A stretch of DNA of 64,000 nt from Giardia intestinalis (taxonomy: Eukaryota). The notes under the pieces are model-generated. The model searched no databases. It saw only the letters and a list, made by a program, of their open reading frames with translations, and was not told the origin of the DNA. The stretch lies in assembly GCA_000002435.2 (NCBI GenBank), contig CM018792.1; one strand, written 5' to 3'. Below, one piece after another: positions 15,528-41,759 of the stretch. Position numbers and translations under genes: made by a program. Each line of letters begins with the position of its first letter. The first letter of the stretch is position 1.

Positions 15528-17345
15528 ATGAATTCAGACAACTTTGTATACGGGCTTTTATCCCCAAATACGTCTCAGAAGTATGCAAATATCGAAAATT
15601 ACGAAGGATTTAATCAGAACAGACAGACAGCTGCGCAGCGTGGAGCTGGAGGATTGGCAAACTATCCCTCTGGAAGCATTGGGGGGCAGAGGCCTGGTGT
15701 GCGGCAACACACACCCCGGAACACTGATGGCACGCCACGGGAGAAACCAACACGCATAAGCAAGCTCATAGACCTATTTTTTGCAGACTACTTCGTCGAC
15801 AGTTACGAGGACTCTGACATTGACGAGACACCTAAGTTGAAGAAGCAAGTAGAGGAGTATAAAGCCCGCGAAGCCAAATACATTCAAGAAATAGACACAC
15901 TAACGATTCACAATAATGATCTAGCAACACAGTTAGAGGAGTTTAACGATAACAACCATAGCACAGTTGTAACACTAGAGCAACGAATAGACAGTCTCAC
16001 TAGTGAAAACGTCAAGATACGGGAGGAGATGGACCTGTTGAAGGAGGAGTTGGTGGTACTCAAGAAGTCCTCTAAGTCCACCCGTTATGCCATAGAAGAC
16101 TATGAGCAGCAGCTAAAGCAGCAGCGGACGAAGAACAACTCTCTCATAGAGGACTTGGCGTCCGCGCAGGCAGAGGCGTCGATGCTGAATGGAAAAATAG
16201 CTGACCTGTCCGCTTCTCTCGCATATTCAGAGCAGCAGTGCGCTAATATGGCAAAAAAGTTGGCTCAGGAACGAGAAAATGCAGCGTCAGAACTGTGCGC
16301 AGCAAGAACAGACAACGCCAAGCTCCGCATAGAGTATGAGCGGGTCCTTACAGAATTGCAAGAGACGCATGCTGCACATCGAGAGCGCATCAGGCTTTTG
16401 GAGGACGACCGAGGGAGATTGCAAAATGAGCTGCGAGAATCTAAAATTGATCTCCAGTCATCCATCAAGGAAGCAAATGACTTCAAACGGAAGAGCATTG
16501 CGCTCTCTATGCCCATTCCGACTAGAGAGATGACGATGGCTCTCACAAACAAGGACGAGGAGATACACAGGCTTAACCTGACGATCAGCTCCTTGGAAGA
16601 ACGCCATCGCACTACGATAAAGGAAGTTGAAGCTGCGCATGAGCTCCTGTCGGCTGATATGGTGGCAAAGGATAAGGCCTTGTTGAAAAGCAAGGCAGAG
16701 ATTGCAGGTCTATCGGAGCAGCTGGATGCCATGATAAAGCACAAGTTGGAATTGCAATCTAGAATCGGTTTTCTGGAGCGTGTTGTAAAGGACAAGGATG
16801 AAGCCATTGAATCTATCCAGGATAGAGCCGGTGCGGCACAGACCGCCGTGGCCCTCTCCAACGGCCAGCACAGCATAGATGTATCCGCGCTTCGTGCACA
16901 GATAAAGGAAAAGAATTGTGAGATTACTCGTCTTCAGGACGAAATGCGGAACGTGCTTCAGTCAAAGAATGCTGAGATCAATGCCCTCAAGCTAAATGTA
17001 ACCACGCTTACGGAGAGGGTGCGGGAGTACAGAGACCGATTGATGGAGTCTGGCAGCCCCAGTAGCTCAAAGGTTAACGACCTCAAGCTCCTTCAGGTAC
17101 TCGGAAAGGAGTCCTCCTCCACACACGATAGTACGGAGTCGGAGATTGGCGCGCTGGAGAAGGAGCTCTCCATCAAGAACATATTAATAAAGAAGAAGGA
17201 CGAGGACATAGATTTCTTCCGTTCACAGCTCGTGCTGAGAGAAGCAGAAATAGAGCGGCTACTCTCGTCGCAGACGAGCACTTGTAGCAAACAGCCTAGG
17301 ACCCCCTTGAAGGCCGTGCTGAAGAAAAGCAAGAGCAAGAGCTAA
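15528..17345 (+). CDS. Coiled-coil protein, hypothetical
   Basis: 605-aa ORF with a verified ATG. Nearly the whole length is heptad-type E/L/K/R-rich sequence. Confidence 0.5.
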   Translation: MNSDNFVYGLLSPNTSQKYANIENYEGFNQNRQTAAQRGAGGLANYPSGSIGGQRPGVRQHTPRNTDGTPREKPTRISKLIDLFFADYFVDSYEDSDIDETPKLKKQVEEYKAREAKYIQEIDTLTIHNNDLATQLEEFNDNNHSTVVTLEQRIDSLTSENVKIREEMDLLKEELVVLKKSSKSTRYAIEDYEQQLKQQRTKNNSLIEDLASAQAEASMLNGKIADLSASLAYSEQQCANMAKKLAQERENAASELCAARTDNAKLRIEYERVLTELQETHAAHRERIRLLEDDRGRLQNELRESKIDLQSSIKEANDFKRKSIALSMPIPTREMTMALTNKDEEIHRLNLTISSLEERHRTTIKEVEAAHELLSADMVAKDKALLKSKAEIAGLSEQLDAMIKHKLELQSRIGFLERVVKDKDEAIESIQDRAGAAQTAVALSNGQHSIDVSALRAQIKEKNCEITRLQDEMRNVLQSKNAEINALKLNVTTLTERVREYRDRLMESGSPSSSKVNDLKLLQVLGKESSSTHDSTESEIGALEKELSIKNILIKKKDEDIDFFRSQLVLREAEIERLLSSQTSTCSKQPRTPLKAVLKKSKSKS

Positions 17346-17363
17346 GTCATGCCGGCTCTGCGT

Positions 17364-20300
17364 CTACCTTTCGCAGTACAGGTTCAATGAAAGACCTATT
17401 GTGGTGACACACACAACAAGGCCAGTGATAGCGAGCGCAGAGTATGTTGGGCTAATCACAAAAGGAACGGGAACAAGAATGCCCGACGTTAGAATGAGCA
17501 GTATAGTGGAGTACAGGATCGTGACAATAAATACAGCAATCATGAACTTGCGTACGGTCTCGGCAAAATGAAACATTTGAAGCATGTCAGATAGATGGTT
17601 TGACATGAGTACTATATCGGCGCTATTCTTGAGAATTTGCTCCCCAGAACCAACAGCCACAGATACCCCACAAGCAGGTAAGCAACTGATATCATTGATC
17701 CCATCACAGACAAAGAGCACTTTCTGCTGCTTCTGTTCCCACCCGTCTGCTTTCCAGCCGTGAGACAACATAGTTACTTCCTTTTGTGTGGGCCATCGGT
17801 CGTGAAGAGCCAAAAAACGGATTGCATCCGGCTTCACATTAACTGGAAGATCATGTATGACACACTCTCTTGGAATTTCAACCTTGTCAGAGACTTTGAA
17901 GGCCGAGTGCTGGGTGTCTGCGGTGATCATGTACACGTTGTAGCCCCTCTTCTTCAGCCGTGAAATCGTAGCTTGAGAGTCTGGTCTAACGGTGTCTGAC
18001 ACAGTTATGGTAGAGATAAGTTCCCCCCTTATGTACAGTGCCGCATAGTCGTGGTTATCGAACATGCCCTCTAACTGTTCTGGACTTGTGGAGTTGATAA
18101 ATTCGTACTTAAATGTCTGAGGGTTAATTCGAACGTATTGCTGGCTCTGCTGATTCTCTGTTGGGATACTGCTGTTCTCGTTGTTGCAATTGGAAAGTGG
18201 TCCATCGGTATCTTTCTTTTCATGGTAGAAATTACCACAGTAAATTTCTTCTCCGCCCATAATTGCGCTGAATCCACCACGGTCTTGGTGCATCTCGAAG
18301 TCTTTTGCGTCCGGGAGAGAGAACTCCGAGAGGTTTGAAATGTTTCGAACTATGTGGTCCATTGGCCTTCCTTTGGCAAATAGAATTATGCACGTTAGCA
18401 AGCTATAAATAATTGAGTTTCCAGAGTGGTGAGCAAAGCTGGCGTAATACTTGAGGCATTTGATGGCGACGGAATAGATGAACTTGTCACGCATCTTCCC
18501 CAGAACAACATCTGTATTCATCGCAGCGCACAAATCATCCTTTGTATAAACTTTGGCCATGTAGTCTGCAATGTTTGGAAGAGTAGACATGGACATGCTG
18601 ACATGCAAAGGCATCGAGGTGGTTCGAGGAAAGGCCTGGCTCGGAATTTCGAAGCTCTTTAGGTTTGTGCTAGATATGCTCGGTGTCAGTCCTAATGGCG
18701 AGGACAAACGGTGAATGCTGTCTGACAGTGACGCCGATCCTTCAGAGTGGCATAGAGTGTCGACTGCATTGCTCTTGGAGATAACTTGGATGGACACCGG
18801 CTTACAAAGGCTGCTAAGGTTCTCATTACTCTCCACACTATCCTCCTCTCTCGGCATTACCAAATCAATAGAACCGAGATCGCCGACTGCCACGACAGCA
18901 TTCAAAGCATCAATCGTTTTCGCTGACATTCTGCGCTCTTGACCAGGTTGTGCAAACATAGAAAGAAGAGGCCCAGACGTATCTGTGCCACCAGGAAAAT
19001 TGGTCTCCGACTCCTCCGTTGTTAGAGGCATAGCCATCATTGCACACGTATTACCAGCAGCCTCTGCAGAAGCAATCACAAAGGAAGGAGAAGGGGAGCC
19101 GGCATTTCCATTACCATAAGACTCCTCCGAAATAGTAGCAAGGGTTTCCGGTTCCTTCAACTTTACTGGGCGTTTCACCATGTACCCACCGCACGTGTGC
19201 ACCAGTTGGCCTGTTGCTTCAAAGAAGGCAAACATGGCATCGATGTTGAAGGGTATAAGGATGCTTTCTACGATAGGCTGCGCTAGCGTTAAAGTTCCGG
19301 ATTTAGAGAACACTACATGCTCAACGGATGCCAACTGCTCGCTGAGCAAGCAACTATTGCGCATCAGGAGCCCCATCTTTTGTGCTCTGGTTGACCCAGA
19401 CAACGACAGAATTGGAATTGCAATGGCCAGAGCCGAAGAACAACCGGCAATGAAGAATGCTAGCATAATGTTGAATGAAAAGATAGTTTTTACCAGATTG
19501 TCAGAGGATCTGCTCTTATTATCTTTTACAAAGAGTTCAAGAATATATTTGTGCACCCTATTACTGCTGAAGGCGGCAGCTAGCCATATCACGAGAAGAA
19601 GTACGCCGAGACCAAGAACCAGTGGCCCCATAATGTCCAAAATTCTATTTGAGATTCTATGTAGCTTCGGGAGGTGATCACTCGCCTTCTGAGAGCGCTG
19701 CAGAAGACTGAATATCCTCCCGATGATTGTGTCCTGGTTAATCATGACACAACAAACGTAGAGGTCACTATAGAGGACACGAGTACCGGCATAGATGACA
19801 TCTCCCATATTCTTGACGGCCGACATCATCCGCCGACCACTGATGTATCTTTCATCAACCTCCGTGGAACCGTAAACAACAACCCCATCACAAGGACAGC
19901 GATAACCTGCCTGGACCCTAACGATCATTCCCTTGGTGAGGCTGCGTGTCTGCGCATTAGCAAATTTGTACTGTGCGAAGGACTCATTATAATTGCCAGT
20001 CAAGTGCTCGACAATTTTATTAATCTGGTATTTTTTGATTAGCAGATTGTAAAGAGGGTTGCGTTTGTAGGAGATATTTGGAGAAATAATACTTGTGTCA
20101 GCGCTATGTGCTTGTCCCGTAAAAACACTGATGCTATCATCTACTCCAGACTTCCGTAGAGTAGGAGTACCCTTAGATTTCGCAGAGGCGGGGAGGTGTC
20201 CCCGTGGAGAAAGCGAACTTCTCGTCGTCGCCTTCAGAGAGGTGTCCTTATCAGATGAGTCCATTGCGACCTGGATGCTGTCGCTACTAGGCAAGGACAC

Positions 20301-22625
20301 TACCTCTATGGATGCTGGTTTGGAAACAGCGTCTATGTCAGATAGAAGAAAGTGGGAATTGGCATCTGCGTCTCTAGAAGGCGATTCTTGCACCGTCTGA
20401 AGAACACTATGCTGCTCTGTCATAGTCTCGGTGGCATCTGTAGTGGCATCCGTGTCTGTGTCTTCTTGAAGGTGTGGCTCTAGCAGGTTGTTGGCGTCCT
20501 TAAAGAAGTGATTGACCACCTCTGGGATGAGAAGTTCTGTAACGATCACTGTTTCCGTTGGAATGGACTGTGCCAGATTAATGTATGGCCTTGCAGAAAG
20601 TTGCTTTGCCTTCAGCTCGATAATCTTACAAAAGGAGACCATTGTAATTAGGATGACGAGTGAATCGAACATGAGCGGGGTGCGAGACTCTTGCTTGAGC
20701 CCCAATGACCATCCATAAGCGTTGATCGACACGACAAGACCAGTAAGCAGGATGAACGCCAACATTGATTCATTGGAAAACGTCTTGTTACACAGAGCAA
20801 TCATTCCATATTTAATTATCAAATAGCCTGAGTTGGTCAAGACGCAGAGCGTGGCGAAAATTGCAGCAAGAGTGTCTGAGACAGTGACAAAAGAAGTGTT
20901 CAACTTGGAGTTAACCTGAGCGTTTGTGGGGAAAATGGCATGCCCAAAGGAAAAAAGAAGTGTCAGCAATAGAAACAGTGAGTTAATAACGGCCTGTATT
21001 ATCCATTTCCGCAGATGGTTGTTGTTTATTAATAGAGATCTTGCTTCGTCAGCTACATCGGTCCCTGCAATCAGCTTGCAAGTAAATCCCATAGCCTTTA
21101 TCTTGTTGACTATAACTGGTACCGCAGCCGGAACGGCAAGGAAGAGGACGGTCCCTAACATAACATCAATCTTAATGTCACGGCAGTTTTTGTCCAGCAG
21201 CAAGTTCTCAATAATTCTAACGCACGAGTTGTCCGTTATTCCACCAACGCTGAGGCATATCTCCTTGAAGCGGTCGGTGAAGTCAACGGTGCAGGAAAGA
21301 AACGTCTGCTGCGCTGAAGACGTGAGTATTCTTCCCGACTTAATTAGATACTTGTGTGAATCCTTCGCTAGATCGGAGTGATAATCATTTAGTCGCTTGA
21401 GGAAGAGAACTATGTAGACGCGGCCCTTAGACTCCAGGCGTATGCGCTGCGTATAGGATAGTGGGTTCATGGTGGAGGTATTCTGTTGGCGGCCAACCAC
21501 AGAGTTGAGGTTTCTGTGGGAGAGATCTGACGTTAGGATAGGAGTGCCATCTTTCTGACTCCTTGAATTACGGCGCACCGTTGGATTTTGATTGGATGAT
21601 ATACTGCGGCCCCTACCAACTGCTTCATGGTACTTATAGGAGCTCCGGTCCCTGAATTCGGATATGGGGTGACTATCAACCTCCGCAAATCCTCCTGCGC
21701 AGAGTGGCCACTGGCTCAGGGCACCATAGAACCTCTCCAGTGGCTCGTTAATCGTTGCATTTCTTATGTATAAAAGGGTAACGGGGTGAGAGTTGAAGTA
21801 TACTATGCGAGAAGGGTCACCATCTGCCAACTGAAACGCTGCATAAGCCAACAACTCCAATGGTATCTCGTAGAGGTTTTCGTAGACTCGCAATTGCTTC
21901 TCATCGGGTGAGTAAGGTGACGGATCACTGCCTCCATGTACAGACTTCCCTTGCAGGTTGGTGGTGGCCGATGATGTAATAATTTGCTCTGCCTGTGCTA
22001 CTAGAGGGGTGCGGGCGCTACTCTCTTCTAAGCTTTTCTGCGCCAAGTAGTTGTAGAACCTTCCACAGTGAACCAGTGTAAGAATGTCGTTGTTACCCTG
22101 AGACGCCACATCAAACTCAGTAAAGCGAGGGTCTGTGACTGTACCTGTCAATGCACAAATGCTTGGATTGGCCTCAGACAGCGTGATTCCCGTATACTTA
22201 CTGAGGACCGCAGCAGCCAGGTCGACGACGCGCTGCTGTGGTAGGTTATAGTTCCTCGGAACCTGAGCGACGATGAACCCCCAGAGCTTCTCATAACTGA
22301 CGCATGCACACACTATTATGAAGTTGCCATATATAGTCTTGAGCCGGAGATCAGAGTTCAGGATGGAGACGACCTTGGAATAATCGTCTTCAGTAACGAG
22401 GGCTGAAAGTGTGACTAGGATTGCTACTGCAGGCACGGACTCAAATGCGAGCAGTTCTGCGGGGAGAGAGAGTTTATAGAATACCTTTCTGGCGACCTTT
22501 TCACGTATACTCGAAGATGGAAAGGTGAAATCTGCGGTCGTATCTCTGAATTTAGAATCAATCGGCAGGCGAACCTTCTTCCCATTCGTTAAATGTAACG
22601 CGGGATTGGGGTTGAAGTCATCCAT
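17364..22625 (-). CDS. Protein homologous to P1B-type (heavy-metal) P-type ATPases, but with every catalytic signature degenerate, so it is a probable pseudo-ATPase. It is fused to a large N-terminal region that contains a second block of transmembrane helices.
   Basis: Residues align to P1B landmarks in the correct order. The actuator region reads 'PCDGVVVYGSTEVDERYISGRRMMSAVKNMGDVIYAGT', where TGES has become SGRR. TM6 reads 'IAGCSSALAIAIPI', where CPC has become CSS. The phosphorylation site is 'VVFSKSGTLT', where DKTGT has become SKSGT. 'VYMITAD' matches MxTGD. The hinge reads 'CDGINDISCLPACGVSVAVGSGEQILKNSADIVLM', compared with GDGINDAPALA...ADIVLM. C-terminal TM helices are present. The track start is a GTG at 22628 and the first ATG is at 22623-22625. 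Confidence 0.6.
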   Translation of the reverse strand: MDDFNPNPALHLTNGKKVRLPIDSKFRDTTADFTFPSSSIREKVARKVFYKLSLPAELLAFESVPAVAILVTLSALVTEDDYSKVVSILNSDLRLKTIYGNFIIVCACVSYEKLWGFIVAQVPRNYNLPQQRVVDLAAAVLSKYTGITLSEANPSICALTGTVTDPRFTEFDVASQGNNDILTLVHCGRFYNYLAQKSLEESSARTPLVAQAEQIITSSATTNLQGKSVHGGSDPSPYSPDEKQLRVYENLYEIPLELLAYAAFQLADGDPSRIVYFNSHPVTLLYIRNATINEPLERFYGALSQWPLCAGGFAEVDSHPISEFRDRSSYKYHEAVGRGRSISSNQNPTVRRNSRSQKDGTPILTSDLSHRNLNSVVGRQQNTSTMNPLSYTQRIRLESKGRVYIVLFLKRLNDYHSDLAKDSHKYLIKSGRILTSSAQQTFLSCTVDFTDRFKEICLSVGGITDNSCVRIIENLLLDKNCRDIKIDVMLGTVLFLAVPAAVPVIVNKIKAMGFTCKLIAGTDVADEARSLLINNNHLRKWIIQAVINSLFLLLTLLFSFGHAIFPTNAQVNSKLNTSFVTVSDTLAAIFATLCVLTNSGYLIIKYGMIALCNKTFSNESMLAFILLTGLVVSINAYGWSLGLKQESRTPLMFDSLVILITMVSFCKIIELKAKQLSARPYINLAQSIPTETVIVTELLIPEVVNHFFKDANNLLEPHLQEDTDTDATTDATETMTEQHSVLQTVQESPSRDADANSHFLLSDIDAVSKPASIEVVSLPSSDSIQVAMDSSDKDTSLKATTRSSLSPRGHLPASAKSKGTPTLRKSGVDDSISVFTGQAHSADTSIISPNISYKRNPLYNLLIKKYQINKIVEHLTGNYNESFAQYKFANAQTRSLTKGMIVRVQAGYRCPCDGVVVYGSTEVDERYISGRRMMSAVKNMGDVIYAGTRVLYSDLYVCCVMINQDTIIGRIFSLLQRSQKASDHLPKLHRISNRILDIMGPLVLGLGVLLLVIWLAAAFSSNRVHKYILELFVKDNKSRSSDNLVKTIFSFNIMLAFFIAGCSSALAIAIPILSLSGSTRAQKMGLLMRNSCLLSEQLASVEHVVFSKSGTLTLAQPIVESILIPFNIDAMFAFFEATGQLVHTCGGYMVKRPVKLKEPETLATISEESYGNGNAGSPSPSFVIASAEAAGNTCAMMAMPLTTEESETNFPGGTDTSGPLLSMFAQPGQERRMSAKTIDALNAVVAVGDLGSIDLVMPREEDSVESNENLSSLCKPVSIQVISKSNAVDTLCHSEGSASLSDSIHRLSSPLGLTPSISSTNLKSFEIPSQAFPRTTSMPLHVSMSMSTLPNIADYMAKVYTKDDLCAAMNTDVVLGKMRDKFIYSVAIKCLKYYASFAHHSGNSIIYSLLTCIILFAKGRPMDHIVRNISNLSEFSLPDAKDFEMHQDRGGFSAIMGGEEIYCGNFYHEKKDTDGPLSNCNNENSSIPTENQQSQQYVRINPQTFKYEFINSTSPEQLEGMFDNHDYAALYIRGELISTITVSDTVRPDSQATISRLKKRGYNVYMITADTQHSAFKVSDKVEIPRECVIHDLPVNVKPDAIRFLALHDRWPTQKEVTMLSHGWKADGWEQKQQKVLFVCDGINDISCLPACGVSVAVGSGEQILKNSADIVLMSNHLSDMLQMFHFAETVRKFMIAVFIVTILYSTILLILTSGILVPVPFVISPTYSALAITGLVVCVTTIGLSLNLYCER

Positions 22626-22694
22626 CACGTACGCCAGTTGCGGCCAGCTGGTTAATTTTTTGGGGTGGTCTGTTTCTTTACCGCTACAACTGAA

Positions 22695-23138
22695 ATGGAT
22701 TTGGATCTACCGATAAACACCGTGCTCAGGGCTTGTGATATCGACCTTGAAAGCATAAAACTTTCAAAGGACCTGCGGCTGGGGCTCACCCAGATATGTA
22801 CAACAGCGATTTCATTCGTAACCTTCCTCGCCGAGAAACAGGGAAAGTCAGGTAAGAAGATCATTTCTACTGCAGATGTAGTCCGTGCTGCCTCGCGTCT
22901 TGAAATACCTGGTCTGGACCGCGAGTTGAGAGAGTTTTTGCAATCTGAGAACCACGCAAAAACAACCGAACGATTCAATACGAAGAACCCAGCCAACGTG
23001 CTGTTACTCAAAAAGGTCCAGGAGGCAGCTATCGATCGCTTTAGTAGTCTTGACATCCCCGACAGCCTAGGCTTCAACTTCGATTTTCTCACAGAGACAA
23101 AGGCACTAGACAAAGATGCTCTTGATCCTACTGAGTAG
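22695..23138 (+). CDS. Histone-fold protein of the CBF/NF-Y family, resembling NF-YC, NC2-alpha or Dpb3
   Basis: The track start is a GTG at 22665 and the first ATG is at 22695. The histone-fold pattern is 'LPINTVLRAC...LSKDLRLGLTQICTTAISFVTFLAEKQGKSGKKIISTADVVRAASRLE...LREFL' (alpha1, loop, long alpha2, loop, alpha3 and an FL-type tail). Confidence 0.5.
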   Translation: MDLDLPINTVLRACDIDLESIKLSKDLRLGLTQICTTAISFVTFLAEKQGKSGKKIISTADVVRAASRLEIPGLDRELREFLQSENHAKTTERFNTKNPANVLLLKKVQEAAIDRFSSLDIPDSLGFNFDFLTETKALDKDALDPTE

Positions 23139-25685: not shown

Positions 25686-28600
25686 TTAGTCCTTGTCACC
25701 AATATAGTATGATACCTTAAGCATCGCTTCCAGAACAGAGTTTTTCTTGACGGGTCTTCTAAACCTCCTTTCAGGTGGCTCAAAAGGCTCTGCGTCCACG
25801 GCCTGCTCTGACTCGCTGAGAAGCTCAGTAAACGACCGTGTTCCAGTAGATATCTGTTCCAATTTATCCAGCGTGCTGTTCACAATGTCGCAAACATGCC
25901 GCTCGTGAAGAACCTCTGGGTTTCGCTCCTCAAATTCCTCTGCAGTCTCATAGCGAGGGTCCGTCTCAACGGTGTGGAAGTAACGCAAGCGTAGCAGAGT
26001 CTGGATAAAGGCCTTTGTCAAGAGCTCAAGAAGGCACTGGTCTTCCTTTTGAAACTTCGAGAAGAAGCACAGCACGGCTCCGATAAGAGAGATCTTGAGA
26101 TGGGGATGCGAAGCAGGGATTTCTAAGAGTGTAGAGTCTACCAATCTGAACGCATTTAAAACCTTGTAGTGGCTGGCATCAGCATCCTTGGCGGATGCGC
26201 AGAGCAAATCGCCAAGAATCACGGCGGTCCTATGCTTGTCCAAATTGGTTAGAAGCGTGTCACCTATGCTGAGAATATACGGCTCAATAAGGTATAAAAA
26301 GGGCTTTAGAGACGCTTCTGCAGATCCAGAAGAAGGCTGCTCTTGCACATGAGAAAGAAGGATGTTGCAAACGGTGAGGCTTCTGGACCGCAAGTCCGGT
26401 GCTGCAGACAAAAGAACTGATCGATAGGTATCTTCAGCGAAAAAGCCTTGTAGCTGAACGAATAACGCGTTATACTTTGCCTCGAAGTCTGGTGCCAGAG
26501 ATAGCAACTGAATAACCGAGGCAAACAGTCGAAAGCTGGCAGCAACAAAATCAATATTATCTCGTGTTTTACGCATCTTTCCAAAAACCGCATCTTGCAG
26601 GTCAACAACAACCTCAAGTAACGTGGTCAGTGCGGAGATGCAAGCATCGGCAACGTGCTCCTGGACATCTTCGGCATCAGCTACCGACAGAATAGTTTCA
26701 CTAAGGCATGATAGCAGTATAAGGACACTGGTCTGCTGGGGCAGCACCTTCTCATTCGCCAAGATGGAGCGAATGAAATAGAGGGGGCAGCGCTGATAGC
26801 CAGTATCCTCGCAGCGCTTGATAAAGACGGCAAGAGTTTGCATAGCCTCAGAAACCACCTGATCAGAGCCCTCCGCCAGTTGCGAGCAGTTAGAAATTGT
26901 GACAACAAAGGACACAACAGAAATATCAACGCACCCGCTGAGAGTCTCTGCGTCGAGTCCTCGATACACCTCATGGAGGCAGGCCAGAACGACACGACGG
27001 CCAGCATTCGTTTCAAACTCTGCTGCCACCTTTAACAAGTTACGAATATATACTATCCGCTTCTTATGGGTCATCTCATAGGTGACAATGAAGTGGCTCA
27101 GGGCTTTTACTAAGCTAGCTGTCTGCTCGTGTCCCTCAACCATTGCTGCGACTTTACAGAAGTATGTCATTGTCTCATAAATTTCTGGCACATCTATATT
27201 CTTTTCAACGATAAGCTGTATCATGTGAAAGGCTAGCAGTGACTTGAGACTTTTATTCAACATCAGCGAAGACACCTTCACAATCAAGGAATAATCTTCA
27301 GTGGAGAAGAGATCGTAGTCGTTTGTCAAAATCACGTTAATCAGACGGAAACAGGCCTCTAGCTCCTGCCTGTCCGATGTTCGATAAAGGGCCTTGCAAC
27401 ACTCGGAGGCAATAAGCTTGGTGCGTACTGTTGGATAATTGGGCATCATAGCGGCAAGGGAATGGAATCCACTAGCGCGGCAGAAGGCCGCTCGAGAGCT
27501 GAGCATGAGAAGCACATAGTCGGCAATCTCAGGATATCTTTCAGCGGAAATAGTGGGCGCACGAAGAGCCGGTGGAGGAAGGGTAGCAATGGGGTCCTGA
27601 GCAGCATGCGGAAGGGCATGAACTGACTCCTCTGTTCCACTAGCAATAGCAGCGAAGTAAGGCATGTATTCATGAACATATGGGTCGCCATAGTGCTTCT
27701 CAATTCCATGACGTAGAAGCGCGCCCACTAGCTTGTGGGGCACCGTTGTATCGTAACTTGAGCCAACTCCGCTGAAGCCTCCAGAAATGGAACCGATCCC
27801 CTGGTAGAGCCTCTTAGGAGACGGCTCAAGAAGCAAGTGCTCGTTTCTGATATCTGTTATTGCCCGCGCTCTCCGTAAGTCATCCTCTTCGACTCTAGCG
27901 TTGATGATCTTCTCCTGCTTGGTAAGCTTGTTGCACGCGTCAACAATCTGAGGTATCAAAGCGTGATAGAAACATTTGGGGGACATCATATAGTGGACAA
28001 ACTCCAGAAGAGCGTCTTCTGTAACGGTAGAGTTAACGAACCAGCCAGCCAGTAAGGAGTGTACAATTGCATCCTGCTGGGTTGACGAAAAAGAGTAGGC
28101 ACAGCCCCTGAACAGAGGCTCAATGAAGAAGACGGTTTGGGTGATGTTAGAGAAGGACAGAGATGCTGCAGTCAGTCGAATTATATCTGCAGAGCGAGAC
28201 TCACCCACCTCAATGTGCTTGATGCTTAGTAGCGAGCGGGCCTTCTGTTCTTGAGCCTGCGCACTAAACATGTCTCGTACAAGAACTGCAATGACTTGCC
28301 GCAAACTGATTGGGGTTATAGCATCTGGTAGAGGAGAGACGTTGCAACTAGATGTATCCACATATGGGAGCTTGAGAATAATGGAGGGATTCTGGATGAC
28401 GGCAAGAAGCGTCCTATGAGGAACCATGATCACGTGCTCGAGGATTTCGTAGTACACGTATGCAGCTAGGTGCACACCAATAAACTCCTTTGCGCAATGC
28501 GTTCTTATTGAGAGTAAAATTGTGCCCAAGTTTCTTGGCCCCAGCAACATTGATATGTGCGACAAACATCGTCTGCATGCTGCACGAGCATCCTGGTCTG

Positions 28601-31600
28601 TTGAGGCAAGATCCTTCAGAATAACTATGACCAGATGGTTAAGCCGCCGCTGCCGCTGCTCCCATGGAAGTTTTGCGATAAGCTTACTAAGCGTTGTTGC
28701 TAACAGGTACCGATTCTGCGTTGTTCCCAGCCGCCTATTGATATATCTTTGCACTTGTGGTATGAAAATGCGGGAAACATGCGATAGAACCTGCGCAGGC
28801 GCGTAATCAGTGATGGAATTGAAGAGTAGCTGGAGAGGATCTGGGCTGCTCTCTACTGCTTCTGACTGATCCTTCTGAGTCTTTTCTATAGCTGTGGCAA
28901 TGACGAGGTCGTTCTTCCTAATATAACTAGCTGTTCGCATCCCACTAAGTGCTTTTTCAAACTCCTGGTTTTCCTGCTCTGCGTCAGGACCATTTTCTTT
29001 GGATGAAGTGTCAAAGCCGACGGTGAGTGATGTGTTAGGTGCACTGAGAAGGTTAAGTGAAGGGTGATTTCCTGACCCATCTCTAGCATCATCTGCAATG
29101 CTCGTATCACCGCTATCACTGGAGACCTCCAGCTCAGACTCGTTCGACGATTCAGTATCATCGCTGTCAAAGCTTTCATTTTGAGTAGCTGAAGAATTCT
29201 TTGAAGCTGTGATAAATCGGAAGTTGTCGAGAAGCGAGTTCAGAGCCTGTATGAGCCTGCCCTCGTTGGGTGAACTGTTGACCTGGCCGAGAAGGTAGAG
29301 AAGAACTGTCCTATAGCGTGCCCAGTCTAGATAAAGGCCACAAGCAGCCAGAAAATTCAAAAACATGGTATCCAACTTGTCGTCATTAGCAATAAGACAC
29401 TCTTGCAGAGATATGGGGATGAGGATGTTTGTAATAATGTTCTGATTTAATCGACAGCCAAATGCGTTGCTCATAATGAGTCTGCCTAATAACGTATTGC
29501 ACAGAAATGAAAATACATTGCCGAATGCGCTTATGCGAGCGGACGCAGAAGCATCTGCCAACCTGACAAAATCAGTCAGCTGATAAACGCAGAGATAATC
29601 AGGGCGTGCTGCATTGGCCAAACACCTTAATGATGGCATAGACCACTGGGCAGCCGAGTCCAATTCACGATCGAAGTTGAACTCTTCATCCAAAAGAACG
29701 GCCAAGTCTTCGGCACTAAGCATCTCACGCACATCACAGAGAAGCCTTCTGTCAGCACCATATCCTGCATAAACCTGCATAAACGACAGGAGCTCTGAAC
29801 GCCCTCTCCTCCGCTTGCTATCAAGCTGCGTGCTATGTGCGACGGTCTGACTTATATAAGCATGTACGTAATTCAAGAGCAGCACCTGTGCGGCCCTCCA
29901 CGAGTCTCTATGCTCAGAGTCTTCTGCTGGAGGTTTTAAGGTGAACGTACGAAGCAGTGTCGATGCCGCACTGCGCTCTGCATCAGACCCCTCGGTAAGG
30001 AAATGAAGAGCCATCCCTAAGGCCATTTTTGAGTGGCACAGGTAGGCGGAGAGGTGTTGGATGCTCTCCAGTCGCGATTCGTTATGGGGTATCCCGAGCT
30101 TGTAAAGCAAGGTGTATATCTCTGCATGGTCTCGAAGGGAGAGGGTGCTGGCTTTTGAGTATACTTCTGAAGGGATATTTAGGGATTCTATGGCCTCCAC
30201 GGTTCCGTAACACCGAAAGAGCTTGGCAAGGACTGGTCTGGCATCCACAAGCTTATTCTTCATAACAAGAGGAAGGAGAAGATTGTGCGTGCACAGAGGA
30301 GAAGCAAATTCATAAAATCTAAGGATTGCACCTGAAACTTCTGTGCTGTCGGCGTTAAGGGCGTAATGGAAAATTTCGCAAAGCTCCTCGATGATAGGAG
30401 TGATGACATTGAACCGCTTGCTCTCTGCATCGCACAAAAGCAATGTATGAACAGTGGCCAAAGATTCACGGCAGAGAGACGACACCAGGTTCTCAGGCAT
30501 GGTATATCCTATTGTGAATTCTCTAAAGTACTTTGTAGAAAGCCTTTTTCGTAAACAAAGGAGCAACCGTTCTGTAAATTCCTTCTTAATACTTGGAAGC
30601 TTCTCCAAAAGAAGGGTATACTCAGGCGTATCGAGAGTCTGCGTGCAGCTGTCCAACAATGCGGTGGCCAACGTAGTGAAAACTCGCAGGATCGTTAAGC
30701 TCTGCTTAGGATGAGGGCGCAAGTGGACTAGAAGGTCGTCTATAAACAAGTAATTCCATTGCATGTAACGCTCGACTCTAAGAGGATATCTAGATAGGAC
30801 AGTATACATCCTAACCAGGCTATTGGAGCACGGCTCTGACTCATTCTTAATGTGGAACTTACTGATCAGCGTATAAACTACCTTGAAAAAGGTCAGAGTG
30901 CTCTGTCGAGCACCGGTGTTGAATATCTCCTGGAGGCGTGCCTCTGAGTCTGTAATTTCAAGACAGCAAGTGATAAAGGTTCTGATCGTACGGAGAATGG
31001 TGCTTCTGATAAGATCAATCTCGATGCCGTCGATGTCCACCCCTTGGTGGGGGATTTTCTTGGCCTCATTCCGTGCGACGGCATCTGCACGATAGGTATC
31101 CAAAGAGCTATTGTACCAATCTGTCAAGTGTGTATGCGCATCCAGGTCAAAGAACCAGAAAGTAGCGAGAATGAGCACCACGTGCAAATACGCAGTTGTA
31201 ATGTAGGCGCTTGAGATGTACGGGAGCATCATTGTGCATGTGTTACAGAAGCCTCGGATCATGTTTCCGTGAACGTTGGGGACTCTAGCAGCTAGCCCAC
31301 ATATGTCCTCTAGATCGACCCTATGGAGAAGAAACTCAACTATCTCTGCCTCTGTGCCGCCAATGATAACGTCGTGGAAGAGCTTACTGAAAATAGGAGC
31401 GATGAGAATCCCGTACATGCGGTTGCGCTCTCGTGGGTCCATGTTTTGCTCCGCAAATGCGAAAATGGTGCGGCGCCTACTGTCATCAGAGCCGACAGAC
31501 CGTCCTCCGACGGCAGCATTTGCGACGCCTGAAATATAGTTGAAGCTCCTGCCTGTGCGGACAACCTTTCCCGCCATGAGATAGAGTGCAATGTCCATGA

Positions 31601-34600
31601 AATCTGCCCGGTAGGCTTCGTGTATGAGGGAAATTCCGCCATAGTCACGCTCATACATCTGCTTTCTGGACAACTTCTTGGTACAGAGCTCATATAGCTC
31701 ATCGAAGCCGGCTCTAGTAAGCTTGTACGGTGGCTCTGCGACCTCGCTGCCGCTAAAGCGGAGACTTAAGAGCTGATCAGTAAAAGTCTGCAAATTGGCC
31801 ATGCGTCCCAATACGTGAATGAAGGGGGCCTTAGTCAAGAAGTAGTAGAGAATTACGCAGTTAGGAACCATGTACTCTAGCGAGGCAGTAGAGAAGACGA
31901 GCTTAATCGCTCCCATTAATTTAGCGCGCGAATCATCTACAATGCGGTCTGCCAAGAGACAAAAAAGCTTGCTCATTAGGTCCATTGAACGGGAATGAAT
32001 CTCAGAGCCTTCATAGCCTTCACTAGTGTTTCCAAGGTTAATACGCTTAACATAGGCGGCGATCAGCCCGCACACACAAGCATCGGAAAAGATATTAGTG
32101 AAGTGTGTCATCCAAATCGCCTTTTCAGCAAGAAGTGTCACAATCTTCAAACTCTCCGAGGGAAGAATCGTGTTAACGCCTATGTACTTAATCGTATTTA
32201 TTCCCAGTAGAAGCTGTGCAACCACCTTACTAGTCAATAGATGGGTTGATCGAACTGTAGCCTTGTCAACGAGCAAATTGAGGCGGACAGCAATCTGCTC
32301 CCGCTCAGCCGTCATGATTCTGGCACGGAACTTATTGTCAGAGCGATATACCCGCTCCTCTGCTCCCTGATCATCTTGGCCATCTAACGTATAGGGATAA
32401 GGGTACTCTGCCTCCATAGAGAAGTTATGAATCAGTTCAAACACAGGGTTCTTGACCTCATAAGCAGTAAGCTCGAATACGAATTTCCAGAGATAGCGCT
32501 CGAACACGTAGGAGACTTCTGCCGGACGCATCTCGGCAAATAAACGCAGCAAGTCAATAGCGCCGTCGGCTACAGGTGCAAAGCGCATGTAGAGAAGTCC
32601 ACATGTCGCCGCTGCAACGATGGATATTACCCTGGCAGAGTCGTCGTTGGCCTTAGCAGATGAGACCTCCAGGAAGCCTAACAGCTGCTTCTGCAACTGT
32701 GTCATTATATGCTGGACTTCAAAAACATTCGTAAGGGGAAAGAGGCTGGCATACTGACCAATAATAGCAAACCCGCGTGAGGCACCCCCGAGTAAACTCA
32801 CTATCTTCAACATCGATCGTCTCATGACACCATTGGGAGATGTCAGCATGATTAAAGGTAGTTCGCTGTTTAAAAGGGTTGCATATAGCTCGTCCAGCGA
32901 AGCACCAGCCAGCCGTGTTGCCAGAACGTCGAAAAGAGAGTCGTACTGGATGGAGACGATAGACTCGAGTAATGTAAAGAAGTACTCTGGTGAACCAGGG
33001 GTGACCTGAATTAATAGAGAAAGCAGGGTGGTGATAAGAGCACCTTGCGTTGTAAGCACCGCGGGCTTCTTAGCTATTCTGCCTACAGAAAGCATATTCA
33101 AATACGATGCATCAATGCTTTGCAAGAGAGACTGCAGCGCTTGCGTATGCTTTCTACTGAGCAACGAGCGCGAATATAGACAGGCTAGGACAGTGCACAA
33201 CATAGATCCTGTTTCGTTCTCCAGCTCATGGACAAAGTCCCTTTCGATTGCTTCTACAATTGCGTCGAGTTCTGAACCGGAGGGCGAATCACAGACTCCT
33301 TCGCAGAAAAGGTAAAGACGAATGTACGGGGAGTGATCCTCTGAAAGAGAAGAGCTGTACACACTTTTGAATGTGTCTATAAAGATGTCCCGTTTGTGGT
33401 GCCTTGAAAAGTCCTGAACCATGACATAGAGAGAGTAGAACACGTTATAATTGCATAGGTCAGCATGAAACTGTTTGAAAAAGGTTGCTACTAAGTCATC
33501 CTTGCATTCTGCGTGGAGAGAGGTAGAGATAGCCAACAAGCACAAAGTCAGTAAGTAAAGGCTCCTATTCAAAGCTTCTTTGTTCGCCACAATCAAGTGA
33601 TAAAGGTCATTAATACCGGAAAACGTCATCTTATTGGGGTAGAACATTGCAAGAGAGAGTAGTGCGTTTTGAGTCTCATGCTGCTGAGAAGGGTCTGACA
33701 GCAGTTTCAGTGCGTGTCCAGTAATAGATAGAATAACCTGTGATAGTGCAGATGAATCCATTTCTGCCTCTGCGAAGAGCGTGGTTAGATCAACAAGCCA
33801 GTTCTCGGTATCTGACTTCGGGATAGAGAAATAGGAGCCAATAATGATATCAAAACGACTATGCAGGGTTCCGTCAGGGTGGCGGCACGCTAGAAGAAGT
33901 ACTAGATTAGCCATTGTTGACTCAAGGGGCCCGGCGATCGACGTGAAGATCTCAGACATACAGTCGTCGTGGCGGGAGTGAACTCTGACAAGATACGCTG
34001 GTATCTCCGCCAAGCCTGGCCATAGCATACGCTCCATCTGTTCCACATAGGAGAGAATTGCACCCCAAATACCCTCGGGTATGGCCCCGCCTAGATACTT
34101 CAGAGAAAGAAGTAGGCTTTGAATTGCCCCCACAAATAACTCTGGATGCTTGCACACGCCATTGAGACGTAAAAGTGTGAGGCTTGTGAGAATAAAGTGC
34201 TTATTACTAGGCCCCAGGTCACGGAAAAGGTCAGGCAGCGCGCGAATGATGCTCAAATAAACGGTCTTGCTTGCTATGAAATCCGAGCTATTAGGATCCT
34301 CGAGTGTTAGCGCATTTAAGGCATTCTCAATAATGGAAAAGAGACCATCTGGATCATACAAAACCTGCACCAACAGTCTATAGTTGAGCATCACGTCGTC
34401 ACAGAGAGACAGAAACACTCCGTGATCGTTGCCAGCCTGAAGCTCTTCCAGCTTAGCAGAAAACAAGGATATCCGCTGGTCTTCTGGGAGATCCGTGTCA
34501 TAGTGCTTACTCCGCGTGGAGTCAATGTTGAAGTGGGCCATGAGAGAGAAGTAATCATGGTATTTGGTGGTCTTGGTCCGAGTGTCGTAGATCGGTGTGA

Positions 34601-34631
34601 GCTGGTCCCTCTGCTGATCTCTGCGGGGCAT
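25686..34631 (-). CDS. Giant 2981-aa hypothetical protein, probably an alpha-helical (HEAT/ARM-like) scaffold
   Basis: A single uninterrupted ORF with a verified ATG. It is Leu-rich and helical throughout. No P-loop, kinase, RING or WD signatures were seen. Confidence 0.5.
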   Translation of the reverse strand: MPRRDQQRDQLTPIYDTRTKTTKYHDYFSLMAHFNIDSTRSKHYDTDLPEDQRISLFSAKLEELQAGNDHGVFLSLCDDVMLNYRLLVQVLYDPDGLFSIIENALNALTLEDPNSSDFIASKTVYLSIIRALPDLFRDLGPSNKHFILTSLTLLRLNGVCKHPELFVGAIQSLLLSLKYLGGAIPEGIWGAILSYVEQMERMLWPGLAEIPAYLVRVHSRHDDCMSEIFTSIAGPLESTMANLVLLLACRHPDGTLHSRFDIIIGSYFSIPKSDTENWLVDLTTLFAEAEMDSSALSQVILSITGHALKLLSDPSQQHETQNALLSLAMFYPNKMTFSGINDLYHLIVANKEALNRSLYLLTLCLLAISTSLHAECKDDLVATFFKQFHADLCNYNVFYSLYVMVQDFSRHHKRDIFIDTFKSVYSSSLSEDHSPYIRLYLFCEGVCDSPSGSELDAIVEAIERDFVHELENETGSMLCTVLACLYSRSLLSRKHTQALQSLLQSIDASYLNMLSVGRIAKKPAVLTTQGALITTLLSLLIQVTPGSPEYFFTLLESIVSIQYDSLFDVLATRLAGASLDELYATLLNSELPLIMLTSPNGVMRRSMLKIVSLLGGASRGFAIIGQYASLFPLTNVFEVQHIMTQLQKQLLGFLEVSSAKANDDSARVISIVAAATCGLLYMRFAPVADGAIDLLRLFAEMRPAEVSYVFERYLWKFVFELTAYEVKNPVFELIHNFSMEAEYPYPYTLDGQDDQGAEERVYRSDNKFRARIMTAEREQIAVRLNLLVDKATVRSTHLLTSKVVAQLLLGINTIKYIGVNTILPSESLKIVTLLAEKAIWMTHFTNIFSDACVCGLIAAYVKRINLGNTSEGYEGSEIHSRSMDLMSKLFCLLADRIVDDSRAKLMGAIKLVFSTASLEYMVPNCVILYYFLTKAPFIHVLGRMANLQTFTDQLLSLRFSGSEVAEPPYKLTRAGFDELYELCTKKLSRKQMYERDYGGISLIHEAYRADFMDIALYLMAGKVVRTGRSFNYISGVANAAVGGRSVGSDDSRRRTIFAFAEQNMDPRERNRMYGILIAPIFSKLFHDVIIGGTEAEIVEFLLHRVDLEDICGLAARVPNVHGNMIRGFCNTCTMMLPYISSAYITTAYLHVVLILATFWFFDLDAHTHLTDWYNSSLDTYRADAVARNEAKKIPHQGVDIDGIEIDLIRSTILRTIRTFITCCLEITDSEARLQEIFNTGARQSTLTFFKVVYTLISKFHIKNESEPCSNSLVRMYTVLSRYPLRVERYMQWNYLFIDDLLVHLRPHPKQSLTILRVFTTLATALLDSCTQTLDTPEYTLLLEKLPSIKKEFTERLLLCLRKRLSTKYFREFTIGYTMPENLVSSLCRESLATVHTLLLCDAESKRFNVITPIIEELCEIFHYALNADSTEVSGAILRFYEFASPLCTHNLLLPLVMKNKLVDARPVLAKLFRCYGTVEAIESLNIPSEVYSKASTLSLRDHAEIYTLLYKLGIPHNESRLESIQHLSAYLCHSKMALGMALHFLTEGSDAERSAASTLLRTFTLKPPAEDSEHRDSWRAAQVLLLNYVHAYISQTVAHSTQLDSKRRRGRSELLSFMQVYAGYGADRRLLCDVREMLSAEDLAVLLDEEFNFDRELDSAAQWSMPSLRCLANAARPDYLCVYQLTDFVRLADASASARISAFGNVFSFLCNTLLGRLIMSNAFGCRLNQNIITNILIPISLQECLIANDDKLDTMFLNFLAACGLYLDWARYRTVLLYLLGQVNSSPNEGRLIQALNSLLDNFRFITASKNSSATQNESFDSDDTESSNESELEVSSDSGDTSIADDARDGSGNHPSLNLLSAPNTSLTVGFDTSSKENGPDAEQENQEFEKALSGMRTASYIRKNDLVIATAIEKTQKDQSEAVESSPDPLQLLFNSITDYAPAQVLSHVSRIFIPQVQRYINRRLGTTQNRYLLATTLSKLIAKLPWEQRQRRLNHLVIVILKDLASTDQDARAACRRCLSHISMLLGPRNLGTILLSIRTHCAKEFIGVHLAAYVYYEILEHVIMVPHRTLLAVIQNPSIILKLPYVDTSSCNVSPLPDAITPISLRQVIAVLVRDMFSAQAQEQKARSLLSIKHIEVGESRSADIIRLTAASLSFSNITQTVFFIEPLFRGCAYSFSSTQQDAIVHSLLAGWFVNSTVTEDALLEFVHYMMSPKCFYHALIPQIVDACNKLTKQEKIINARVEEDDLRRARAITDIRNEHLLLEPSPKRLYQGIGSISGGFSGVGSSYDTTVPHKLVGALLRHGIEKHYGDPYVHEYMPYFAAIASGTEESVHALPHAAQDPIATLPPPALRAPTISAERYPEIADYVLLMLSSRAAFCRASGFHSLAAMMPNYPTVRTKLIASECCKALYRTSDRQELEACFRLINVILTNDYDLFSTEDYSLIVKVSSLMLNKSLKSLLAFHMIQLIVEKNIDVPEIYETMTYFCKVAAMVEGHEQTASLVKALSHFIVTYEMTHKKRIVYIRNLLKVAAEFETNAGRRVVLACLHEVYRGLDAETLSGCVDISVVSFVVTISNCSQLAEGSDQVVSEAMQTLAVFIKRCEDTGYQRCPLYFIRSILANEKVLPQQTSVLILLSCLSETILSVADAEDVQEHVADACISALTTLLEVVVDLQDAVFGKMRKTRDNIDFVAASFRLFASVIQLLSLAPDFEAKYNALFVQLQGFFAEDTYRSVLLSAAPDLRSRSLTVCNILLSHVQEQPSSGSAEASLKPFLYLIEPYILSIGDTLLTNLDKHRTAVILGDLLCASAKDADASHYKVLNAFRLVDSTLLEIPASHPHLKISLIGAVLCFFSKFQKEDQCLLELLTKAFIQTLLRLRYFHTVETDPRYETAEEFEERNPEVLHERHVCDIVNSTLDKLEQISTGTRSFTELLSESEQAVDAEPFEPPERRFRRPVKKNSVLEAMLKVSYYIGDKD

Positions 34632-38283: not shown

Positions 38284-38298
38284 TCGATAAGCTGTACT

Positions 38299-38305
38299 AG
38301 TGAAT
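38299..38305 (+). promoter_or_regulatory. Putative Giardia polyadenylation signal (AGTGAAT, which matches AGTRAAY) 16 nt after the stop of the ankyrin gene
   Basis: A direct sequence match in the position expected for Giardia 3' ends. Confidence 0.35.
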
Positions 38306-38766
38306 CTAGCATTTACTCCGTTTCAGAAAGTGACCTCATCAGCTGCAGCCCAAAGGCTGTCATCTGGGCCTCCCGAGTAACTGCTGGTCTTACATAGACT
38401 CACTTAGGTATTGCTCAAAGCACACTTCTTACACTCTGAACAGGAAGATATAGGCTGTCCCCAGATCTGCTCTCAAGGTAAAAGACTCACCTGGCTGTTG
38501 TCGGCCAGCTGAACCGTGTTCTTAGGGAATCGAGCAAGATAATCGCTTGCCGAAAAATAATCTGAAGGCTCGTTGATAAGTGAGACCTTCGGATACTCCA
38601 TAGTATCTGTTACTGACCAGAAGGGCGTGTTACATTCATATGTGTCTAGCTGGTGTCGGACGAGATAGTATTGGCAGATAGTCGGTGTCTGTGATTGCCA
38701 TTTATCCACAAGGCGACACTGCTCTTCTAGTCAGTCTATCATCTGCTCCTTGGCCTCCTTCACCGT

Positions 38767-39792: not shown

Positions 39793-39795
39793 GCG

Positions 39796-41706: not shown

Positions 41707-41759
41707 CCGGTCCTTTTTTGGGCCGCGGGTAGGTTAGCCGTGTGCGGGACTTGCACACC

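Follow-up and report, generated by a model that had tools for sequence, protein, structure and literature searches.

Few enzymes are conserved as rigidly as the P-type ATPases, and well-supported cases in which the whole P-type chassis outlives its chemistry are, to our knowledge, rare. Those identified in this work are the flippase modules of P4GC proteins and the disputed protein TMEM94. In P4GC proteins, which are alveolate fusions of a P4-ATPase with a guanylate cyclase (for example Cryptosporidium and Plasmodium GC-beta), the flippase module keeps its fold and the Asp of DKTGT and the Glu of DGET are altered in some lineages; the module is presumed to persist in a supporting or regulatory capacity (PMC13466520). 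TMEM94 (ERMA) is P-type-ATPase-like, without TGES, and one cryo-EM study saw neither ATPase activity nor a phosphorylation cycle (PMC12134183), but its status is disputed: a later paper argues that it is an Mg2+ ATPase of the ER (PMC13322241).

The 64,000-nucleotide stretch of DNA analysed here (the window) comes from Giardia intestinalis, assemblage A. On its minus strand (-), to which all feature coordinates below refer, lies a complete coding sequence of 1753 codons and a TAG stop (17364-22625; ATG at 22625-22623, stop at 17364-17366); the GTG at 22628, listed as the start of the open reading frame, is one codon upstream of this ATG. The gene product is XP_001709772.2, known in databases as 'Copper-transporting P-type ATPase'. 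It probably descends from a Cu(I)-type (P1B-1) P-type ATPase but has lost both catalysis and transport, and would be a pseudoenzyme that Giardia and a few related uncultured eukaryotes have retained as a functional membrane protein.

The ancestry of the protein is evident from several kinds of comparison. Pfam matches are to E1-E2_ATPase (PF00122, 1.6e-19, residues 891-1084) and Hydrolase (PF00702), and the same scan detected no cyclase and no other catalytic domain. The general P-type model TIGR01494 is passed (95 bits against a cutoff of 62.3 bits), whereas the top NCBIfam model, TIGR01525 for heavy-metal P1B pumps, scores 224 bits, below its 346-bit cutoff, and TIGR01511, another P1B model, scores 194 bits against a cutoff of 397. 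Among relatives of solved structure, ATP7B is the best match (1.4e-31). An AF2 core model (pLDDT 70.8, pTM 0.67) gave ATP7B (E 1e-23, TM-score on target up to 0.73) and CopA as its best Foldseek matches. The A, P and N cytosolic domains and the TM core fold of P-type ATPases are thus recovered by Pfam, TIGR01494, AF2/Foldseek and hhalign together, and both NCBIfam and phmmer place the nearest relatives in P1B, not P4.

All parts of the P1B body plan are still present: a degenerate HMA domain, the eight TM helices (MA, MB and M1 to M6, found by hydropathy and as AF2 helices) and the three cytosolic domains A, P and N. The N-terminal cytosolic region (residues 1-330; 21636-22625) is family-specific and consists of two confidently predicted alpha/beta modules (residues 1-200 and 245-325) joined by a variable linker. 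It is under the strongest constraint in the whole protein and is the sole part without a recognisable family; neither a known sequence family nor an HMA sequence signal was detected in it. A word-index search with residues 1-450 returned no match, a result that is uninformative because the Giardia orthologues were missed as well. The degenerate HMA domain (residues 452-528; 21042-21272), recognised by profile search, hhalign and the family alignment, matches the HMA domains of ATP7B at 1.9e-10 in a PDB profile search and canonical HMA domains with 96.8% probability (E 2.7e-10) by hhalign. Helices MA, MB, M1 and M2 follow (residues 540-677; 20595-21008), as located by hydropathy, AF2 helices and alignment to residues 559-807 of ATP7B. 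The first-pass annotation had treated the N-terminal part and a separate upstream TM block as additions to a pump, which is wrong for residues 452-700: the supposed block is the canonical MA/MB/M1/M2 set in its usual place after the HMA domain. Its proposal of a fused N-terminal extension of about 800 residues does not hold either, because the approximately 890 residues before the A-domain have the same spacing as in human ATP7B (residue 897 of the query corresponds to residue 825 of ATP7B), and therefore nothing has been added by fusion.

Beyond M2, a disordered, fast-evolving insertion of variable length across the family (residues 711-855; 20061-20495; pLDDT below 50, dN/dS 0.08-0.18) precedes the segment of the actuator (A) domain (residues 856-985; 19671-20060), which is supported by Pfam, the motif table and its dN/dS of 0.012, begins with family-specific helices (residues 857-876), and contains an invariant RCPCDG at residues 909-914. 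Helices M3 and M4 (residues 987-1083; 19377-19667) were located by alignment, hydropathy and AF2. The P-domain was placed by alignments as a first half (residues 1096-1125; 19251-19340) and a second half (residues 1521-1685; 17571-18065), followed by helices M5 and M6 (residues 1686-1753; 17367-17570), assigned by alignment and hydropathy. Between the halves of the P-domain lies a divergent N-domain (residues 1126-1520; 18066-19250), which was recovered by profile-profile comparison only (hhalign against canonical N-domains, 98.9% probability, E 1.7e-16) and not by sequence searches; a PDB sequence search with residues 1346-1690 aligned the P-domain part alone and missed the N-domain. In the AF2 model the N-domain is broken up by disordered, low-confidence loops (residues 1156-1233, 1244-1353 and 1470-1486), and it contains a conserved RRMS at residues 1231-1234. 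An N-domain insertion of roughly 580 residues had been proposed; the true excess is about 250 residues, located mainly in these three loops, as the distance from SKSGT to MITAD is 452 residues compared with 120-309 (mostly fewer than 230) in canonical pumps.

The functional motifs were compared with those of 98 canonical P1B relatives, taken from the top 150 phmmer matches, in an alignment of 105 sequences; nearly all of the 98 carry the CPC/YN/MxxSS signature. Both this alignment and residue-by-residue comparison bear out the four substitutions first reported: TGE to SGR, CPC to CSS, DKTGT to SKSGT and GDGxND to CDGIND. In the dephosphorylation loop of the A-domain, SGRR (residues 929-932; 19830-19841) replaces TGE by a change of Glu to Arg and a one-residue insertion, at a position where all 98 canonical sequences have Glu. 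SKSGT (residues 1107-1111; 19293-19307) replaces DKTGT, so that the position of the phosphorylated Asp is Ser1107 in 7/7 family members (Asp in 97/98 canonical relatives). CDGIND (residues 1640-1645; 17691-17708), the start of a CDGINDIS at residues 1640-1647 that aligns on GDGxNDxP, has Cys where 96/98 canonical relatives have Gly. Five further sites have been lost: TGD has become TAD, the YN of M5 has become YS, the MxxSS of M6 has become IxxLV, the His of SEHPL has become Asn, and the CxxC of the HMA domain has become DxxC. The first of these removes a motif previously counted as surviving scaffold, since MITAD (residues 1566-1570; 17916-17930, placed by alignment) is TGD with Ala in place of a Gly found in 98/98 canonical relatives; throughout the family the two P-domain motifs read TAD or TSD and CDG[IMV][NGT]D, with both Gly positions gone. 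By hhalign, the ATP signature of the N-domain has changed from Glu to A1398 (before SEHPL), from His to N1403 (within SEHPL) and from Gly to R1449 (the first of GxG). The residue register behind these changes is moderately reliable, since it depends on one profile-profile alignment in which the family profile is thin (Neff 2.3).

The metal-binding sites have fared no better. In M4, CSS (residues 1062-1064; 19434-19442, by alignment) replaces CPC; where 98/98 canonical relatives have the helix-breaking Pro, 7/7 family members have Ser or Ala, and the second Cys is present in 96/98 canonical relatives. In one family member, P0009, the triplet is CSP, so that a Pro follows at the next position. 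YN of M5 is YS at residues 1705-1706, and MxxSS of M6 is represented by I1733, L1736 and V1737, so that of the TM ligands of Cu(I) the only ones left are the first Cys in CPC and the Tyr in YN. In the HMA domain GMTCxxC is GITDNSC, its first Cys being an invariant Asp (D465) and its second varying between Cys and Ala across the family. Intact motifs are not hidden elsewhere: DKTG, TGE and GDG are absent from the rest of the protein, and DKTG and TGES from all six reading frames of positions 17001-23000 of the window. The same substitutions recur in independent assemblies of several Giardia assemblages and are therefore not sequencing errors.

That the protein is a working but divergent copper-transporting P-type ATPase, as source annotations have it, is very improbable. 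The overall P1B fold, the eight TM helices and the TIGR01494 score are what such a pump would have, but its scores fall far under both P1B-specific cutoffs, and every class of residue needed for the Post-Albers cycle or Cu(I) binding has been replaced: the phosphorylated Asp, the TGE Glu, the Pro and second Cys of M4, the Asn of M5, the Met and Ser residues of M6, the Glu and His of the N-domain and the CxxC of the HMA domain. Across the 98 closest canonical pumps, conservation at the lost functional positions is 92-100%. We infer that formation of an aspartyl-phosphate would be impossible, as would occlusion or transport of Cu(I).

Loss on this scale could also be expected of a decaying relic, either a pseudogene or a gene drifting neutrally since copper use was lost, and the long, disordered, fast-evolving inserts might be taken the same way, but patterns of selection and distribution make this extremely improbable. 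Between WB-like and P15 sequences (dS 0.76), dN/dS is 0.042 overall, with lower values for residues 1-200 (0.003), the A-domain (0.012) and the P-domain (0.007); its range in the folded cytosolic domains is 0.003-0.015, with synonymous sites near saturation. Every Giardia assemblage has an intact 5.3-kb open reading frame, as do G. muris (45% identity) and two distant uncultured relatives (approximately 30% identity); the dead motifs are shared by all of them, and the replacement residues are themselves invariant. An exhaustive phmmer search of 1.84 billion representative sequences matched nothing in the family beyond G. muris (E 2.5e-251) and a pair of environmental proteins (3e-131 and 5e-114), and the next matches were ordinary P1B pumps at about 1e-37. 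This search is the reliable survey of the family: a word-index search with the family alignment, which has a weak prefilter, yielded no new members and also missed G. muris, P0009 and P0010, and a metagenome scan with family patterns yielded no relatives. The gene neighbourhood is syntenic among Giardia assemblages, and no synteny with the Giardia window was found at the two environmental loci. The papers searched contained nothing on XP_001709772.2, including biochemical or expression data.

The cytosolic N-terminal domain and the A and P domains are under the strongest purifying selection, and the TM segments (dN/dS 0.015-0.057) are less constrained. This difference, along with the lack of any precedent found for a channel derived from a P1B pump, makes it unlikely that the eight-helix membrane domain now acts passively, as a channel or carrier that would let an ion or small molecule through without ATP, with the cytosolic domains as its gate. 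Although the TM segments are under purifying selection and C1062, A1069 and P1071 of M4 are kept, the known ligand residues of the P1B membrane site, other than the two named above, have all been replaced by apolar or small residues.

Clear homology, loss of catalytic residues and purifying selection, the properties by which pseudoenzymes are operationally recognised, are all found here. Because the residues for copper and ATP have been lost and yet conservation is strong, the protein is probably a relative of the pumps with a new, non-pumping role. The suggestion that it cannot pump and has been repurposed is strengthened by the five extra lost sites, by the strong purifying selection, and by the dead motifs of G. 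muris and the two relatives at approximately 30% identity.

The family-specific invariant residues cluster in the P-domain pocket. All family members have S1107, C1640, C1648, C1652, S1655 and E1662, residues seldom seen at these positions in real pumps; the three cysteines are new, in place of Gly, Ala and Ala, and Ser1107 is invariant even though its codon is TCT, TCC, TCG or AGC in different lineages. The A-domain cysteines C910, C912 and C958 are invariant too, and the Mg/phosphate ligands K1108, D1570, K1598, D1641 and D1645 are kept. Judging from the alignments, remodelling of the former phosphorylation pocket has followed a conserved pattern and is not random decay, and some ligand binding or non-canonical chemistry may still be possible because several of the P-domain residues that bind Mg and phosphate survive. 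It is conceivable, if rather doubtful, that the protein is a non-canonical enzyme or phospho-switch, in which the pocket would bind Mg2+ and phosphate or a nucleotide, and phosphorylation of Ser1107, by a kinase or by the protein itself, would shift the conformation of the A, P, N and TM domains without transport. Invariance of Ser1107 through a change of codon class and retention of K1108, G1110, T1113, D1570, K1598, D1641, G1642 and D1645 across a family of approximately 30% identity are consistent with such a switch, but structural reasons could explain the retained residues, the adenine-binding residues of the N-domain are replaced, the TGE Glu required for hydrolysis is gone, and we know of no HAD-fold enzyme with a Ser nucleophile. 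A similarly tentative proposal, drawn from residue patterns, is that S1107 and C1640/C1648/C1652, next to D1641, D1645 and K1598 and perhaps together with C910, C912 and C958, might form a new thiol-based metal or redox sensor site, and that the pump chassis might have become a membrane receptor. Conformational coupling among the A, P, N and TM domains would then transmit the state of a ligand instead of driving transport.

For the conserved pseudoenzyme that the evidence favours, the most likely role would be that of a membrane-anchored scaffold, sensor or regulator, whose conserved cytosolic surfaces (the N-terminal domain of residues 1-330 and the A/P interface) may bind partners or a ligand. 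The long disordered loops, which contain basophilic kinase motifs conserved in Giardia (RRNS at residues 351-354 and the RRMS at residues 1231-1234), are perhaps regulatory. As a public name, 'copper-transporting P-type ATPase' is probably a misnomer and should not be used in support of inferring copper export by Giardia or of proposing the protein as an ATPase target for drugs; it also prompts the question whether any P1B copper pump exists in Giardia. A pseudo-pump conserved to relatives of approximately 30% identity at a dN/dS of about 0.04 would be a clean natural experiment on the use of a P-type scaffold for something other than pumping.

Compared with the Cu(I) P1B-1 ATPases (ATP7A/ATP7B, Ccc2, RAN1/HMA7 and CopA), the Giardia protein has the same order of domains, HMA, MA-MB-M1-M2, A, M3-M4, P/N and M5-M6, and ATP7B is its best match in both sequence and structure, with similar spacing before the A-domain. 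Unlike these pumps, it is substituted at the catalytic and metal-binding residues of all five functional centres, and it has extra disordered inserts (residues 711-855 and those of the N-domain) and the family-specific residues 1-330. TMEM94 is not a P1B relative and, unlike the Giardia protein, still has Asp where phosphorylation is proposed to occur, as well as an M4 broken by proline. The P4GC module is a P4 lipid flippase always fused to a cyclase with a known output, whereas the Giardia protein is of P1B type and has no cyclase, and its degeneration spans every centre and is fixed across the whole family. In contrast to such fused modules, the Giardia protein would be a pseudo-pump of P1B origin that stands alone, with no fused output domain.

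The dead-pump gene is a single uninterrupted minus-strand ORF of 1753 aa at window positions 17364-22625, whose true start is an ATG (22625) directly after the GTG codon given by the ORF finder, and which ends at a TAG stop (17364-17366). XP_001709772.2 and KAE8303837.1 ("Copper-transporting P-type ATPase") belong to its 99%-identity cluster; the older RefSeq model, XP_001709772.1, has 1368 aa and the current XP_001709772.2 has 1753 aa. The adjoining ORF at 15528-17345 is identical to G. intestinalis XP_001709771.1, which assigns the window to this species, with an assemblage A-like sequence. Immediately upstream of the gene is a small, divergently oriented plus-strand ORF (22665-23138; 157 aa by the ORF finder, 147 aa as called in other assemblages), which has no Pfam match and keeps its position in the B-like and E (P15) assemblages. 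Elsewhere in the window, a 2981-aa minus-strand ORF (25686-34631) with a UTP20 domain (PF20416, 1.5e-18) appears to encode a very large small-subunit processome component, and a GC-rich island at 38000-48000 (55-63% GC versus approximately 47% elsewhere) contains a papain-family cysteine protease ORF (39796-41706, minus strand) and a 1602-aa VSP or high-cysteine membrane protein gene (42997-47805, plus strand; PF03302, 8e-80), overlapped on the opposite strand by very long ORFs at 42912-46937 and 43015-46788.

The dead-pump protein matches the Pfam families E1-E2_ATPase (residues 891-1084, 1.6e-19) and HAD hydrolase (1512-1650). Heavy-metal P1B models rank top in NCBIfam at scores well under their curated cutoffs (TIGR01525, 224 versus 346 bits; TIGR01511 for Cu, 194 versus 397 bits), and the generic P-type model TIGR01494 is passed (95 versus 62.3 bits). 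ATP7B is the top PDB match (phmmer, 1.4e-31). When residues 554-1753 were modelled with AlphaFold2 (mean pLDDT 70.8, pTM 0.67), Foldseek matched the model best to ATP7B structures (E 1e-23, target TM-score up to 0.73) and next to further P1B pumps. Helix boundaries from hydropathy, alignment with ATP7B and this model define the canonical eight TM helices: MA (540-566), MB (577-603), M1 (616-641), M2 (649-672), M3 (993-1020), M4 (1044-1075), M5 (1690-1712) and M6 (1722-1750). The separate upstream TM block described in the first-pass annotation is therefore the ordinary MA-M2 block, and the HMA-like domain ahead of it is also ordinary. Nor is the N-terminal extension an added fusion: the approximately 890 residues ahead of the A-domain match the spacing in ATP7B. 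The supposed N-domain insertion of about 580 aa shrinks to an excess of approximately 250 aa between SKSGT and MITAD. Low-confidence, fast-evolving inserts are located between M2 and the A-domain (711-855) and within the N-domain (1156-1233, 1244-1353 and 1470-1486).

Motif columns were tabulated from an alignment of residues 554-1753 with six other family members and 98 canonical P1B representatives taken from among the closest. All seven family members differ from the canonical residue at the TGE glutamate (E in 98/98; R or L in the family), the CPC proline (P, 98/98; S or A) and second cysteine (C, 96/98; S, T or P), the DKTGT aspartate (D, 97/98; S) and first threonine (T, 98/98; S, I or A), the TGD glycine (G, 98/98; A or S), the first glycine of GDG (G, 96/98; C) and the M5 YN asparagine (N, 97/98; S, T or I). 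The M6 methionine (M, 93/98) is I, S, M or T in the family, and the M6 serine pair (S, 96/98 and 92/98) is L, I, M or V followed by V, T, N or S. The phmmer alignment to ATP7B places ERYISGRRM over ESLITGEPM, GCSSALAIAIP over ACPCALGLATP, VVFSKSGTLT over VMFDKTGTIT, and FVCDGINDISCL over MVGDGVNDSPAL. DKTG, TGE and GDG do not occur anywhere in the protein, nor do DKTG and TGES appear when window 17001-23000 is translated in all six frames; the protein's sole literal CPC is in RCPCDG (909-914), on a soluble A-domain strand. Because intact motifs are absent and both alignments place the replacements on the motifs, the TGE, CPC, DKTGT and GDG substitutions noticed at first pass are real, although that list was incomplete, further sites also being lost.

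The N-terminal 535-residue profile matches ATP7B HMA domains (1.9e-10), and residues 452-528 match 110 canonical HMA domains with 96.8% probability (hhalign), but the metal motif GMTCxxC has become GITDNSC, its first cysteine an invariant aspartate and its second Cys or Ala family-wide. Plain sequence search did not detect the N-domain, which a profile-profile alignment did recover (98.9%, E 1.7e-16); in the register of that one alignment, the glutamate before SEHPL is A1398, the SEHPL histidine is an invariant asparagine (N1403) and the first glycine of GxG is R1449. Altogether, five functional centres are predicted to be disabled: the HMA domain, the metal site within the membrane, and each of the A, P and N domains. 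The protein fails every residue-level test of a functional pump, and should be unable to form an aspartyl-phosphate intermediate. Since it also lacks the hydrolysing glutamate, the adenine-binding histidine and glutamate, and all but two Cu(I) ligands, established P-type ATPase enzymology would exclude a Post-Albers transport cycle. A working copper pump, as the database name and P1B affinity would have it, is a very remote prospect. Giardia is not known to have cytochrome c oxidase or Cu/Zn-SOD, so loss of a copper-loading pump would be plausible.

Orthologues at 94%, 85% and 81% identity, obtained together with their DNA, keep the flanking genes. Between the window sequence and assemblage E isolate P15 (Nei-Gojobori, dS 0.76), dN/dS is 0.042 for the whole protein, 0.003 for residues 1-200, 0.012 for the A-domain, approximately 0 and 0.007 for the first and second halves of the P-domain, 0.015-0.057 for the TM blocks and 0.08-0.18 for the inserts; the approximately 385 N-terminal residues missing from XP_001709772.1 are the most strongly conserved part. 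Exhaustive phmmer (1.84 billion representatives) found only four outstanding relatives, one of them a fragment, before ordinary P1B pumps at about 1e-37. G. muris TNJ30675.1 is 45% identical (E 2.5e-251), and two environmental relatives, one on a JGI metagenome contig and the other in an SRA assembly, are 35% and 33% identical over matched stretches (E 3e-131 and 5e-114). Only this search recovered these three; a word-indexed protein search missed them, and with an N-terminal query missed even 99%-identical orthologues, so its null results are unreliable for a long protein with long variable disordered inserts. The environmental loci (L004, 10001-15634; L005, 2275-8358) each encode a full-length family member on gene-dense, apparently intron-free contigs of uncultured eukaryotes (SRR31929897 and JGI 3300010163; GC 68% and 59%) that have no synteny with Giardia. 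The N-terminal domain and the dead motifs recur in each of the three distant members: SKIGT, SKSGT and SKAGV at the phosphorylation site; AGRR, SGRR and TGGL in the TGE loop; CST, CSP and CAS in M4; TAD, TSD and TSD for TGD; and CDG for GDG throughout. Across lineages, the codon for the serine that replaces the phosphorylated aspartate is TCT, TCC, TCG or AGC; selection has therefore kept this residue despite synonymous turnover and a switch of codon class. This rules out both sequencing error and neutral decay; that the gene is a decaying relic, for all its lost motifs, is scarcely credible.

The former phosphorylation pocket has not drifted freely. Positions invariant in the family and present in under 10% of real pumps cluster there (S1107, P1599, C1640, C1648, C1652, S1655 and E1662), and the Mg/phosphate ligands K1108, G1110, T1113, D1570, K1598, D1641 and D1645 are retained. 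A P-domain that binds a ligand or acts as a phospho-switch could make use of such a pocket, and is an unlikely reading. A-domain cysteines C910, C912 and C958 are invariant, and RCPCDG (window 19884-19901), which takes the place of the canonical [KR][IV]P[VA]DG, is kept in 7/7 members; together with C1640, C1648 and C1652, these show that the family gained conserved cysteines while losing the canonical ones. Constraint is strongest on the cytosolic parts, and a passive conduit through the eight helices is quite improbable. The best reading of the sequence is a pseudo-pump anchored in the membrane that would act through its cytosolic domains as a scaffold, sensor or regulator. Its disordered loops may be regulatory because the basophilic kinase-type motifs RRNS (351-354; window 21564-21575) and RRMS (1231-1234; 18924-18935), in otherwise variable loops, are kept in all Giardia assemblages and G. 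muris; they are missing from the two environmental relatives.

A literature search found no paper on this Giardia protein or on any dead P1B family. The known systems that the protein works like, and derives from, are the Cu(I) P1B-1 ATPases, and its nearest conceptual precedents are two: the alveolate P4-ATPase-guanylate cyclase flippase modules, with changes to the DKTGT aspartate and DGET glutamate in Cryptosporidium, GC-beta, gregarines and Tetrahymena (PMC13466520), and TMEM94, a P-type-like protein without TGES whose ATPase status is disputed (PMC12134183; PMC13322241). Unlike the dead-pump protein, both precedents lie outside the P1B group, and the P4-ATPase-guanylate cyclase module is invariably fused to a catalytic output domain.
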